The notes under the pieces are model-generated. The model saw nothing but the letters and a program-made list of their open reading frames with translations. It had not been told where the DNA came from and ran no database searches. From an uncultured bacterium (GTDB lineage: Bacteria > Muiribacteriota > UBA6191), in contig CAZIKF010000001.1 in NCBI GenBank assembly GCA_964539825.1, forward strand, positions 22,695 to 86,694: DNA of 64,000 nucleotides, given 5' to 3'. Positions 42,306 to 48,452 of this stretch are shown here, piece by piece (position 1 is the first letter of the stretch; every line of letters starts with the position of its first letter). The position numbers and the translations under genes were made by a program.

Positions 42306-45300
42306 CTACCTGAGAAAATCAAGTAATGTCTGCTGGATAATTCTGGAGCCAATACTCAACGCTGCGCGCTGAGAGTTTTCCAACTGCCTCAACTCAATGA
42401 TGGCATCCGTAATCTCCAGATCCTGGTTATCAGAGAGTCTCTTGGTCAGTTCAATTTTGTTGGTAACAAGCCTCTGCTCTCCAACCTGAAATCTGTTTAC
42501 AACCGAACCTACCTGTGCCCGAACTTGAAGAACTCTCTCTTCATCTTCTCCGATTTTCTCTAAAACCAGCGCGGAGATAGTTTTAGAATCATTGCGAAAG
42601 AGGGAATCACGGAAATCAATCATTGTTTGAAAGATACTTCGTGTGGAACTCATCCCCAATTGAGAAGCTGAATTCCCGTCTTGACTATCACGAACCTTTA
42701 AATAAGAGGAGTCTGTATTGGAGGTGATATCGATGGTCGGCCCTTTGCCGTTAGTCCCTAGTGATGCGGTAACGTTCACATCAGACAGATCTTTGTTGAT
42801 CTTATCGAGAATATAGGCAATGGAGGGAGAAATCGTCGCGGGACCCGATGTAACTTCGGGAGTCCCGTTACCCTTGGCCCCGGAATCCCGCAGCAGACCC
42901 AGGTCCGAGGCGGAGGAAGAATCCTCCGTTCCATCATTATCCAGATCTCTCTCTGTCAAGGTTATGGTTGGCCCATCTACACCTGATACGAGGAGCCGAA
43001 ATCCACCGGATTCAGGCTCTTCCACAATCTCAATCTTGTCCACTCCATATCCTGTGGTTCGCTTGGCTTTATCCAGGGCAATATCGATTGCCCTTTGCAA
43101 ATGGGTTAGATCCGAATCTCGAGAATAGAAGGGTTTATTAGAATACTCCCTTTCCATACTAGCCTGTAGATCTTCGGTTGTAGTAAAAAGATTGATCGAA
43201 TAGTTATTCGCGGCTAAATCAAAAGTGGTGGGATCGGCCTCTACATCAATAAAGGCCCCGGCCGGATCCACATTGATGACCTTAAACTTTCTCTGTCTTG
43301 ACTCCAATCCATTTCCATCAGAGTCGATTTCCACATAGTCATCCAGCTGTGCGGCTGAAAAGTCTCCAGCTGCACCGGTTAGACGAGTTGTAGTAGCAGC
43401 TATATTACTAGCTGTGACGTTAGCTACATTAACCGGACTGGAGGCTGAACGATCATTAGATAAGTCCACAATAGCCGCATTGCCAAACTGGTCCGTGATC
43501 ACAAATCCTGAACCGGGTCGGCCAACATCCACTCCCCCTCTATAAAACCCGGAGATAGAATCGTATTCCCCTTCATTGAAGGCCTTAAAAGGTGTCCTCA
43601 TTGTCACCTGTGGATTCATCAGGTCTATCAATCCCGTATCTTTACCATTTTCCACATAAAGTTCATGCAGAGTATCCTCAAAGCTTGTGTTGAGACCCTG
43701 TTGTTTGGGACTGATTTCGGAGAGTAGGCTCTGCCTGGCAACCGATGGATTCATATCGCCAGAGTGAATAATGCGGGTTTTATCTCCGATGGCCCCGGTT
43801 CCTGTAAGGAGCCTAAGGTCATTCGCTGTTGTTCCCCGGCCTTCCAAGATCACCATTCTTCCTGTGCCGGCAATTTCCTTACCTACACTGTCCACTGAGG
43901 GCACCCCCTGGAGCTTAATCATTCCTAAGGGATCTATTTCTATTTCCGGTTCATAACCAAGACCCGTGATTTGATCTCCTTCAATCCCTATATCCGCGAC
44001 GGAGAGAGACTTTACGGTACCTCCCATTTTTAAACCCAACTTATCGAAGAAAAGGTTGGTCTCCCGAGGAATTCCTCGAATCTCCAGTGTCCCTCCTGCT
44101 AGCAATCCTGTCTGGTCCAGAATTACTAATTTCTTACCGGTATCAGCGGGATCTGAATTCGTACCATCAGCGATGGCCAGCTGCACAGTTCCATTGAATA
44201 CCGAGGGAGCGCCAATGGCGTTAAAAGCAGTTATGAAATCACCCAGGGTAGATGCTTCAGTAAGCCCATTAAAAGCGTTGAATTCAGGGTCTGCGACCGT
44301 ATAGGTGGTACTGACTGGGAATTTAACTCCAAGGTCCTCCAACAGGACTGTATCTGTAAGTACAGTGGGCCTCTGGGCCTTTACCTGAATATGCTCAACT
44401 AGATCTCCCAACTCCAGACTGCGCTGAGTTTCCTGAACTTCGTACATAATAGTATTTAGATCAACCTCAAGGGATCCATTTCCTGAAAAATCATCGATGA
44501 AGAAATTCTCAAGTTCCACGCCCCCCAAATTCTTAGGTTTAACATCTAAAAATCCAGTAGTTACCTCATGGGAGAAATCGGTGAGTTCAGACCCAAACAT
44601 ATCAAGGGCTGTATTCGCACCTCTGGCGGTGGTGGCATCAGTGACCTGCTGCGCGGTGGCATTTGGAGAAGTAACCGCATCATAGGAATCATCTTTACCA
44701 AACCGAATGGGAATCTCTGAAACAAACCGCATGGTGCCATCCGCCCGGACGTCCATCTGCACAGTCGCCTGAAAGTTTTCGTCAGCGGTAATTTCCTGCT
44801 GGATGAGCCGGTCTAGATCTTCCCAGGTTGGATTATCAGGCAAATTCTTGAGATCAACGTTCACTCGTTCATAATTTCCTGTACCGTCATCACTCAATGA
44901 CTCTATTTTCAAGATTCCCGACAGGTCTACTCTCTCAAGCATATTGCCTGAAAAATCAGGATTCTCTGTGGCGTTATCAAGCAGGCTTAATTTGGTATTC
45001 GCCGTGAGACGGTGATCCATATCAACGGATCCTTCAAGGGTATACAATTCCCTTGTTTTCAGTGTTTTGGATTTCACCACTTCATAATGGTCATTCGCCG
45101 CCCCATAACCGACCCTGGAAGAAATCACATCCTGATTTTCAATTCCCTTAAGGGAAAGCCCTGCACTGAGGCCTAGCTGGTTGGCGATTCTTTCGAAAGG
45201 CTCCAGGGCCTTGCCAATCAGGACTGAACCCAGAGATGAAGCGATCCCCGGCCCTTGCCTAATGAGACCCAGATCATGTGCGGTAGTACGTCCTTCCACC

Positions 45301-48300: not shown

Positions 48301-48452
48301 CTGGTGATTGCAGAAGCGGCAATCGGGTCATCTTCTGGCCGCTCTACTCTTTTTCCTGAAGAGATCTCTCGATTCACCCTCAGAAGATCTTGATTCGTCT
48401 CATTGAGATTTCTGAGGAAGTTATTGATTAGAGCCTGTTGTGTTACTCTCAT
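42306..48452 (-). CDS. flgL: giant flagellar hook-associated protein 3 (FlgL-family) of 2048 aa with a ~1800-aa central insertion
   Basis: The N-terminus MRVTQQALINNFLRNLNETNQDLLRVNREISSGKRVERPEDDPIAASAITRINSQL matches the FlgL/flagellin N domain. The C-terminus …DLEITDAIIELRQLENSQRAALSIGSRIIQQTLLDFLR matches the flagellin C domain. Strong SD (AAAGGAGGGA) lies upstream, and the gene immediately follows flgK. The centre is Thr/Asp/Gly/Asn/Val-rich with recurrent flagellin-IN-like segments. Confidence 0.85.
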   Translation of the reverse strand: MRVTQQALINNFLRNLNETNQDLLRVNREISSGKRVERPEDDPIAASAITRINSQLSDTDQFNENIQQSLSELNTVDATLGEVSSLIIRSRELAVQAANDTLSDTERDAIAVEVNQLLESMIQIGNSTIGTRAFFGGHETVGRPFEVVRGSDTGEVRDVITIDGEVRKDINANNVTRVVYKGDEQRSSTEVDQKLTVGSNITGQELFYFDDMVNTSGPNLTKKEVGININTLLENVTNGEGGLGVSKGFLTVRNTRVLHLREDTNPDPNVDNSTKLSQLNNRRGVGRDKSGNFVSLGDVRFTDSQGTSVTVNTNVAPFTNATATIDDAVNFLNSQMYDPVTNPNNPKLRFYIESNGIQVQDNSDGSNILSIEDELGDGVIGANISTFAQDLGITQTLQPKTITAATTPVGLFNEFGGVRLSAARETMSGRLEFNDGTFIEMTAGDKDGQRFVYEDVTGTRTPLFLPHLPGNTTIQGVLDTLDTRLGLAANTHTFADLNTANSNFQVQFSDSTTEQFTLATLGGATASLTGDAVTAVTAGTNTFDEILLQVRNRVVNQEGNGSFNVLLSNGSSFNFNLGRSDLTQSSTLQNVIDELNDQVALLPGAPNFVLNVLGQGIDINTPVGTTIDTVIDEFGSTAAFDLGLLKPFLSVNAGFPNLPESNENFPELSFDERTTLGEWIGETDISSVINGGQIRIQDSTGRELGVNLSTVDVNTTISDFIDLFNSVGSEVVAEFSKDGHGISYRDEAGGSGNFFVEDFAGSSLVKELGVGTPLRGATGSHNAGNMVHLDLRQIGDTINSVGQLLDEINAEVERIGVVASVDEETAQLVLRDARNPEDRGKFRVAVEDAIGKETSLDSLNDGGGINNFKIRVTDSKGISTIFDFQEAETVEDVINSVNLTREVITEKTQLKNIEGFNFPLGSFEVASSFGTATIDLSTLTPASTVLDLVTQMKNDASQAQVNVDLRLDLDERTLSFNFVDLVGGEDDGRISIRDTTFNQARDLKLDTVASDSPFRSGVLVQRRANVTASLNDQRTGLKLVDNFGGELKVTEVEGRTTAHDLGLIRQGPGIASSLGSVLIGKALEPFERIANQLGLSAGLSLKGIENQDVISSRVGYGAANDHYEVVKSKTLKTRELYTLEGSVDMDHRLTANTKLSLLDNATENPDFSGNMLERVDLSGILKIESLSDDGTGNYERVNVDLKNLPDNPTWEDLDRLIQQEITADENFQATVQMDVRADGTMRFVSEIPIRFGKDDSYDAVTSPNATAQQVTDATTARGANTALDMFGSELTDFSHEVTTGFLDVKPKNLGGVELENFFIDDFSGNGSLEVDLNTIMYEVQETQRSLELGDLVEHIQVKAQRPTVLTDTVLLEDLGVKFPVSTTYTVADPEFNAFNGLTEASTLGDFITAFNAIGAPSVFNGTVQLAIADGTNSDPADTGKKLVILDQTGLLAGGTLEIRGIPRETNLFFDKLGLKMGGTVKSLSVADIGIEGDQITGLGYEPEIEIDPLGMIKLQGVPSVDSVGKEIAGTGRMVILEGRGTTANDLRLLTGTGAIGDKTRIIHSGDMNPSVARQSLLSEISPKQQGLNTSFEDTLHELYVENGKDTGLIDLMNPQVTMRTPFKAFNEGEYDSISGFYRGGVDVGRPGSGFVITDQFGNAAIVDLSNDRSASSPVNVANVTASNIAATTTRLTGAAGDFSAAQLDDYVEIDSDGNGLESRQRKFKVINVDPAGAFIDVEADPTTFDLAANNYSINLFTTTEDLQASMEREYSNKPFYSRDSDLTHLQRAIDIALDKAKRTTGYGVDKIEIVEEPESGGFRLLVSGVDGPTITLTERDLDNDGTEDSSSASDLGLLRDSGAKGNGTPEVTSGPATISPSIAYILDKINKDLSDVNVTASLGTNGKGPTIDITSNTDSSYLKVRDSQDGNSASQLGMSSTRSIFQTMIDFRDSLFRNDSKTISALVLEKIGEDEERVLQVRAQVGSVVNRFQVGEQRLVTNKIELTKRLSDNQDLEITDAIIELRQLENSQRAALSIGSRIIQQTLLDFLR

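Follow-up and report, generated by a model that had tools for sequence, protein, structure and literature searches.

The subject of this work is an exceptionally large flagellar gene in a stretch of 64,000 nucleotides (nt) from an uncultured bacterium (GTDB lineage Bacteria; Muiribacteriota; UBA6191), corresponding to positions 22,695 to 86,694 of the forward strand of contig CAZIKF010000001.1 (assembly GCA_964539825.1). This whole stretch is called the window, and all nucleotide coordinates refer to it. Judging from its sequence, the gene at 42306–48452 almost certainly encodes a genuine FlgL (HAP3), that is, it is a positional and sequence orthologue of flgL, since FlgL models match both ends of the product, the closest structures are those of FlgL, and the neighbouring genes are flagellar. 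The gene, its start region and the terminal parts of its product, numbered in amino acids (aa), are the following:

42306–48452, minus strand: flgL, 2048 aa, 221 kDa, isoelectric point (pI) 4.4, no cysteine; a single intact open reading frame (ORF) over 6.1 kb with an ATG start
48461–48470, minus strand: ribosome-binding site AAAGGAGGGA, about 10 nt 5′ of the flgL ATG, inside the flgK–flgL spacer
48018–48452, minus strand: FlgL aa 1–145, N-terminal D0/D1 helices (Flagellin_N, FlgL structures)
42306–42617, minus strand: FlgL aa 1946–2048 plus stop codon, C-terminal D1/D0 helices (PRK06663, TIGR02550, Flagellin_C)

Against the NCBIfam equivalog model of FlgL (TIGR02550), the protein scores 220.9 bits, the curated cutoff being 127.2, in two stretches, the first of which aligns query residues 2–339 with profile positions 1–291 of 387. 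At the N-terminus, the Pfam family Flagellin_N covers aa 6–128 (E 1.9e-18). At the other end, when the last 133 aa were compared with the PDB by phmmer, just a spurious match to IF6 (E 9e-4) came out, flagellin reaching E 0.79, and the identity of this end was then settled by FlgL-specific NCBIfam models: the C-terminal 149 aa align with positions 306–419 of 419 in PRK06663 (E 2.2e-27) and with positions 265–387 of 387 in TIGR02550 (E 6.6e-24). The Flagellin_C profile is covered over its entire length (1–86 of 86, E 7.6e-4), and this family is found in 17 of the 18 members of the protein family described below. The closest solved sequences are also FlgL, namely 9go6_L of Salmonella (E 8.5e-20) and 5yti_A (E 2.4e-19) in the search with the family profile, and the single-sequence search agrees. 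Thus, every defining feature of FlgL that could be tested is present: the equivalog score, the N- and C-terminal helices, and the position after flgK together with flgN. An earlier reading of these letters without database searches (the sequence-only reading) had described a giant FlgL of 2048 aa with flagellin-type D0–D1 helices at both ends, placed directly after flgK with a strong ribosome-binding site. Length, coordinates, strand context and the ribosome-binding site proved right, both termini pass FlgL profiles on profile search, and the upstream gene, which matches TIGR02492, ends with a stop codon at 48473–48475, 20 nt away from flgL.

The exceptional size of the gene might suggest an assembly artefact, a chimeric join or a decaying pseudogene, and the existence of fragments on long contigs in one of the orthologue clusters points in the same direction. 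This explanation can be practically discounted. Fifteen contigs from several projects (NCBI, JGI, ENA, Logan), 20 kb to 1 Mb long, encode the identical 2048-aa protein (P0030) with the same neighbours. A homology search yielded 19 relatives of 1647–2067 aa and 40–100% identity, and the 18 full-length orthologues (1647–2067 aa, 40–78% identical), which share the conserved synteny, align end to end with a mean column identity of 60%; in this alignment hundreds of positions within the inserted region are invariant, many of them Gly, Asp or Asn. At the DNA level, neither tandem, direct nor dispersed repeats were found in flgL, which is evidence against a recent duplication or mis-assembly. The GC content of the gene (0.46–0.48) and its GC skew match those of the surrounding region. 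Cysteine is absent from the 2048 aa of FlgL and from the 799 aa of FlgK, while it makes up 1.09% on average of the remaining 43 ORFs of the window, and the chance of a Cys-free protein as long as FlgL is about 1.6e-10. The lack of Cys is typical of the axial proteins of the flagellum; as it extends evenly across the insert, it argues against a fusion with an unrelated gene. Together with the pI of 4.4, it appears compatible with the chemistry of an exported protein. The fragments mentioned above belong to cluster 3 (P0009), where many of them lie on contigs of 150 kb to 1.2 Mb, and are probably frameshift errors in long-read assemblies.

Between the terminal helices lies an insert of approximately 1800 aa (about aa 146–1945). 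Its composition (Gly 9.7%, Thr 9.4%, Leu 9.4%, Asp 8.7%, Ser 7.8%, Val 7.8%, and Asn 6.9%) agrees with the Thr/Asp/Gly/Asn/Val-rich character ascribed to it from the letters, and Leu is abundant as well. Positions taken from the family alignment A1 (conservation, gap map and hhalign tiles) are the true ones minus 1, as its first row lacks Met1. The parts of the insert, in the direction of translation, are listed below; HMM stands for hidden Markov model, AF2 for AlphaFold2 and pLDDT for its predicted local distance difference test:

47595–48017, minus strand: aa 146–286, proximal region still alignable with ordinary FlgL profiles (first TIGR02550 stretch)
45237–47594, minus strand: aa 287–1072, main array of modules of about 95 aa of the IN type
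46485–47279, minus strand: aa 392–656, two modules absent in shorter orthologues (gap map of A1)
44586–44927, minus strand: aa 1176–1289, module copy (iterative HMM E 5e-12; hhalign weaker, 35%)
44001–44348, minus strand: aa 1369–1484, module copy (iterative HMM E 1.3e-10; hhalign 77–87% to the modules at 709–737 and 902–962)
43443–43664, minus strand: aa 1597–1670, most conserved stretch of the insert (YRGGVDVGRPGSGFVITDQFGNAAIVDLSN), predicted beta-hairpins
43173–43442, minus strand: aa 1671–1760, small beta-barrel domain (AF2: six strands, pLDDT 85–91)
42618–42932, minus strand: aa 1841–1945, last module, running directly into the C-terminal D1 helix (iterative HMM E 2e-16)

The insert was modelled with AF2 in two tiles, aa 140–1262 (pLDDT 71.9, predicted template modelling score [pTM] 0.55) and aa 1263–1945 (pLDDT 74.0, pTM 0.50); confidence is low for aa 140–221, which were modelled without their partner helices. 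The two modules at aa 392–656 form the least conserved part of the protein (28–41% column identity to the query) and are missing from P0017–P0019, while P0015 and P0016 lack aa 421–559 (one module). Conservation is highest in the block of aa 1601–1650 (69% identity, many invariant residues, AF2 strands with pLDDT 80–90), and the segment search gave no family match for aa 1597–1670. The barrel domain that follows is absent in P0018 and P0019. Foldseek comparison of both AF2 tiles with the PDB returned nothing at E ≤ 0.001, large multi-domain queries seeming to blunt the sensitivity of this search; the best values were 0.013 and 0.19, the former being a weak match of the region of aa 1671–1760 to small beta-barrels (Uba1). 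Just before the “TAxDLGL” helix, a D-x-(D/N)-x-D-G loop is found at aa 1836–1841 (42933–42950, minus strand), with the sequence DLDNDG in the query and the consensus DxNGDG; D1836 and D1840 are nearly invariant and G1841 is invariant. The loop resembles that of EF-hands and is a putative calcium-binding site.

The sequence-only reading had noticed recurring segments similar to the flagellin IN motif, and these are real internal repeats. When 100-aa tiles of the family alignment were compared with each other by hhalign, repeats were found with probabilities of up to 97%, among others the pairs 303–392/567–643, 670–750/904–984, 251–332/829–897 and 709–737/1395–1429. An HMM seeded on aa 686–775 and iterated within the family recovers 11 copies in the query: 287–403, 440–541, 552–653, 682–781, 775–866, 860–918 (half), 911–1017, 1014–1072 (half), 1176–1289, 1369–1484, and 1841–1945. 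At least seven of the 11 copies have independent hhalign support above 70%, and the identity between copies is 14–28%. The module follows the pattern G-x-I-R-I-x-D-x-x-G, I-D-L, S-T-(V/I)-x-D-(L/F)-(I/L)-x-x-(I/L)-N, two or three strands, and (S/T)-x-A-x-D-L-G-(L/I). In the AF2 models it corresponds to repeated units of beta-hairpin, helix, strands and short helix.

With respect to the kinship of these modules, Flagellin_IN (PF07196) matches nine of the 18 family members at E ≤ 0.1 (best E 3.1e-6). A profile made from 40 module instances matches Pseudomonas FliD (5fhy_A, E 1.2e-4) and, weakly, the outer domains of Campylobacter FlgK; the module resembles the solved D2–D3 region of FliD in both sequence and fold. 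On these similarities, the modules of the insert are very probably FliD-type outer domains carrying the IN motif. The 94-position module profile (A4) found nothing at E ≤ 0.001 in an index of 5.8 billion proteins, a size at which such a low-information profile is insensitive. Positions 265–291 of TIGR02550 align both to the first and to the last module, and the last module also occurs in an FlgL of Candidatus Riflebacteria; this would agree with an ancestor whose FlgL had a single outer module, later multiplied by internal duplication.

The distribution of the protein is narrow. Its named relatives come from metagenome-assembled genomes (MAGs) of Candidatus Cloacimonetes (40–46% identity), and the housekeeping neighbours are 58–70% identical to those in a named Cloacimonadota MAG; on these two grounds the host is taken to be Cloacimonadota-like, and the giant FlgL was seen in uncultured bacteria of this kind only. 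A survey of that phylum reported flagellar genes in five of 46 genomes. A word-indexed search with the insert alone returned family members only. An exhaustive HMMER search was made with the profile of the C-terminal half of the insert (aa 1263–1945) against 1.84 billion cluster representatives; it gave eight matches, seven of them strong, which correspond to full-length orthologues (P0004, P0015, and P0018) and shorter proteins (P0025–P0028). The eighth is the Ca. Riflebacteria FlgL (P0029), matched by the last module alone (profile positions 612–679), which is the sole part of aa 1263–1945 common to a giant FlgL of another lineage; this search of the C-terminal half found no other protein outside the family. 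Two of the four shorter proteins were read: P0026 is a C-terminal fragment, and in P0028 (401 aa) an unrelated N-terminus of 95 aa is joined to the last module of the giant family and its C-terminal D1/D0 region. P0028 may go back to a wrong gene call or a frameshift, or it may be a short paralogue. PF27198 appears in the precomputed annotation of the orthologues P0008–P0010, P0013, P0014, and P0016–P0018. Databases already label the protein automatically as FlgL or “hook-associated protein 3,” and full-text searches of the literature gave no description of such a giant FlgL.

Two loci from species-representative genomes (L001 and L002), one of them named Candidatus Cloacimonadota, present the order lpxD, lpxC-fabZ, lpxA, comF, flgM, flgN, flgK, flgL and the DUF6470 gene, with an FlgK of 811–825 aa and an FlgL of 1903–2063 aa. 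The identities of the window proteins to those of L001 and L002, respectively, are:

FlgL N-terminal D0/D1: 78% and 68%
FlgL C-terminal D1/D0: 80% and 75%
FlgL insert: 63% and 44%
FlgK: 68% and 54%
FlgM: 58% and 49%
FlgN: 53% and 45%
DUF6470 protein: 39% and 35%
LpxA: 78% and 70%
LpxC-FabZ: 73% and 64%

The insert therefore diverges at the rate of FlgK, FlgM and FlgN, as expected for an ordinary structural protein of the operon and not for a hypervariable surface region.

The genes around flgL are:

48473–50872, minus strand: flgK, 799 aa, no cysteine (TIGR02492, 317.7 bits)
50997–51506, minus strand: flgN, export chaperone of FlgK and FlgL (Pfam FlgN E 2.8e-14)
51543–51932, minus strand: flgM, anti-sigma-28 factor (TIGR03824 E 1.6e-7 and Pfam FlgM E 3e-4, each under its curated cutoff)
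52131–52409, minus strand: yvyF-like flagellar-region gene (TIGR03826 E 1e-14, under the curated cutoff)
41578–42198, minus strand: DUF6470 (yviE-like) gene, downstream of flgL (Pfam 29.0 bits, cutoff 28.9)

The order yvyF-flgM-flgN-flgK-flgL-DUF6470 is common to the window, where all these genes lie on one strand, and to loci L001–L004, in which the DUF6470 gene also keeps its position after flgL. Both yvyF and yviE/DUF6470 have been listed among the genes consistently associated with flagellar loci (bioRxiv 10.64898/2026.06.11.731707). With a comF-like gene at its head, the segment 41578–53028 (minus strand) reads comF-like, yvyF, flgM, flgN, flgK, flgL and DUF6470 in a diderm host, lpxA, lpxC and lpxD lying directly upstream. 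This order matches that of Bacillus subtilis (comF-yvyF-flgM-yvyG-flgK-flgL-yviE). After the DUF6470 gene comes pepA, and neither fliW nor csrA. FlgK is enlarged too, with 799 aa here and 811–825 aa in relatives, and gives weak matches to Flagellin_IN and OTU1_UBXL. A 50-aa motif, “EGxGSTASDLxL..GxGAxGNG,” is common to FlgK and to FlgL at aa ~1508–1569 (hhalign probability 91%), and the outer layers of the two proteins may have co-evolved.

As for transcription signals, a GC-rich hairpin (AGCCTAACAC...GTGTTGGGCT) followed by TTTTTTTT lies between flgN and flgK (~50940–50975, minus strand) and looks like an intrinsic terminator; flgK and flgL may accordingly be transcribed separately or by read-through. 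The scan with the terminator consensus did not list this hairpin. In the window, the sigma-28 consensus (TAAA-N14-16-CCGATA) has a single match, located inside pepA and not above chance, and the counts of the sigma-70 and terminator scans are at or below the expectation from shuffled sequences.

The remaining window is core chromosome: lpxD, lpxC-fabZ, lpxA, the dcw cluster (ftsZ and ftsA), the atp operon, pepA, and trpS. The F-type ATP synthase has a c subunit of 252 aa (12629–13387, minus strand) with three stretches matching Pfam ATP-synt_C, and the gene of this subunit lies between atpB (13384–14133) and the gene of the b subunit (11266–11898). A normal c subunit has about 70–90 aa, and the present one looks triplicated and fused. 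A fused, bifunctional LpxC-FabZ of 426 aa is encoded at 53852–55132 (minus strand; PRK13188 E 4.5e-114), and this fusion, known in some phyla, serves as a taxonomic hint. A 918-aa protein (17763–20519, plus strand) has an unusual architecture of six HEAT_2 stretches and a T2SSE-type secretion ATPase at aa 680–809. No Pfam match at E ≤ 1e-4 was obtained for two ORFs with overlapping stop, 484–3594 (minus strand, 1036 aa) and 3591–5840 (minus strand, 749 aa), and no Pfam match was found for the ORFs 15909–17681 (590 aa) and 20601–22706 (701 aa).

Taken together, the data are likely best explained by a genuine FlgL in which outer modules have been duplicated and whose arms would form a reinforcing collar. 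The junction consists of 11 FlgK and 11 FlgL subunits (PMC12221982), and the same stoichiometry is assumed here by analogy with the structures from Salmonella and Campylobacter. The giant FlgL, chaperoned by FlgN, would pass unfolded through the type III channel of the flagellum, and its D0/D1 helices would insert it on FlgK, into the 11-subunit distal layer of the junction. The outward-facing site, which in ordinary FlgL holds one small D2 domain, would have been expanded to about 1800 residues by an ancient serial duplication of the IN-motif outer-domain module of about 95 aa, a type also present in FliD D2–D3, FlgK and the outer domains of flagellin, and by the addition of several small beta-rich domains specific to the lineage. 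Each subunit would thus carry a multi-domain arm of about 190 kDa, and the 11 arms would add about 2.1 MDa at the junction. In Xanthomonas, the D2 domain of FlgL is exposed and a reinforcement of the junction has been proposed (PMC6155364), and by analogy with this domain the insert is expected to be displayed outwards. The arms may pack on each other and on the enlarged FlgK, the hook or the proximal filament, and the collar or sleeve formed in this way would give stiffness or protection to a mechanically stressed joint. Such a packed collar is the function best supported, since the insert is evenly conserved, FlgK is enlarged and shares a motif with it, and neither a catalytic nor an adhesin family is detected. 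Nevertheless, as a function at the junction it should be taken as a tentative proposal, and a shade more speculative is the picture of 11 arms and the enlarged FlgK as a previously unseen megadalton structure covering the junction and reaching the hook or the proximal filament.

Several points weigh against this explanation. The hosts are uncultured, and the giant FlgL is known here from its sequence alone. Flagellin_IN in the query (~aa 780–910) reaches 20.9 bits, below the gathering threshold of 22.7 (E 4e-4). The AF2 alignments are shallow, with 14–18 sequences, and the models leave it possible that the arms are long and flexible instead of forming a collar. Finally, aa ~1073–1175, 1290–1368 and 1485–1840, which make up about half of the C-terminal insert, have no confident known domain type, so an activity that has escaped recognition is possible.

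It is in this context that the rival functions have to be weighed. A platform of arms at the base of the filament, acting as an adhesin or in the recognition of partners (e.g., particles or syntrophic partner cells), is unlikely. The idea draws on the predicted outward orientation of the insert (by analogy with FlgL D2, PMC6155364), on its build of many small beta-rich domains in a row, as is common in adhesins, and on the different number of modules between lineages. However, Pfam and NCBIfam gave no match to a family of adhesins, lectins or carbohydrate-binding proteins, just 11 copies per flagellum near the cell surface make the junction a poorer site than the filament or the cap, and the conservation of the insert is even and moderate, not hypervariable. 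The sequence-only reading had offered an adhesive mega-domain and a structural adaptation side by side; this pattern of conservation favours the structural option over a variable surface, although the two are not separable here. Far less probable is that the FlgL-like ends serve just as an export signal for a non-assembling exoprotein, secreted via the flagellar type III system, with another protein acting at the junction. In favour of this idea, some non-structural proteins that have flagellin-like ends are known to leave by the flagellar export route in other bacteria, e.g., FlaC of Campylobacter, and the very large size might hinder the packing of 11 subunits. On the other side, the termini are the most conserved parts of the protein (78–80% and 68–75%), these termini pass FlgL equivalog models along their whole length and not just in an N-terminal signal, and at every locus the giant gene stands where flgL is normally located, the 10-kb flanks showing no further flgL.

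The remaining explanations, a giant flagellin and a displayed enzyme, are contradicted, like the artefact discussed above, by the tests that were run. Giant flagellins of more than 1000 aa exist (PMC6248924), and the presence of Flagellin_N and weak matches to flagellin models could suggest that the protein forms filaments. This candidate is rejected and has very little probability: flagellin models reach 25–51 bits each with cutoffs of 217–627, so that none is passed, while the FlgL equivalog is; the C-terminus is of the FlgL type (E 1e-24 to 1e-27), flgK and flgN lie directly upstream, and the best solved relatives are FlgL. It is equally hard to credit that the flagellum displays an enzyme housed in the insert, in the manner of the proteolytic flagellins, a possibility also raised in the sequence-only reading. 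In its favour, approximately 700 residues of the insert are not assigned to a domain type, and the highly conserved Gly/Asp-rich stretch of aa 1597–1670 could be some kind of site. Nevertheless, the predicted elements are small beta/alpha modules, no catalytic domain of Pfam or NCBIfam was found at E ≤ 0.01 in the whole protein or at E ≤ 10 in its segments, and Foldseek gave no significant fold match in the PDB for either half of the insert.

FlgL is usually seen as a small and invariant adaptor of about 300–450 residues. The solved comparators are ordinary FlgL/HAP3 proteins: 9go6_L of Salmonella (317 aa), 5yti, 5ziz and 5ziy (Legionella/Xanthomonas/Bacillus), and the Campylobacter jejuni junction (9gsx). 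The giant FlgL shares with them the D0/D1 ends, the place after flgK with flgN upstream, and the outward insertion site. It departs from them in its 2048 residues, compared with 287–827 in the curated models, and in its at least 11 IN-type modules and extra domains, where ordinary FlgL has no outer domain or one small D2. The length of 2048 aa, given as the longest FlgL in all searches (the family itself spans 1647–2067 aa), is 2.5 times that of the longest curated FlgL model. Among the other hook-associated proteins, FliD (HAP2) uses one D2–D3 unit to form the cap plate, while in the giant FlgL the module occurs about 11 times in tandem. Other oversized FlgL proteins reach about 60% of its length, namely those of Synergistaceae (P0020–P0022, 1269–1307 aa) and Ca. 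Riflebacteria (P0029, at least 1280 aa). They are alike in having FlgL ends and multiple “GxIRIxD...IN...TAxDLGL” modules, and P0029 has the same last module at the C-terminal D1. They differ in that only the N-terminal 5–10% or the last module aligns with the giant FlgL, and, on their sequences, the two groups and the present family look like independent expansions.

Giant flagellins of more than 1000 aa have been described in Oceanospirillales and others, their functional advantage being unclear (Thomson et al., 2018, PMC6248924). In that work, FlgL sequences were excluded from the data by HMM voting, and the authors raised the question of whether further flagellar parts are of matching size; for one component, the giant FlgL answers it. 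Both types of protein have been enlarged by internal duplication of outer domains between the D0/D1 ends, and neither contains an enzyme domain (PMC6248924). The giant flagellins build the filament itself, where thousands of copies make it thicker, whereas the giant FlgL belongs to the junction, where 11 copies are expected, and is about twice as long. It also differs from the enzymatic flagellins, which have a recognizable catalytic domain in the variable region (e.g., a metallopeptidase), while its insert has none. Being conserved over its full length across the lineage, it indicates that major structural innovation can take place at the junction. It would also be a natural example of a 221-kDa substrate for the flagellar export channel, and a feature of about 2 MDa at the junction should be visible to tomographers. 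If the proposed structure is true, the hook-filament junction can become a module of organelle scale, like the filament in bacteria with giant flagellins or the motor in those with extra disks.

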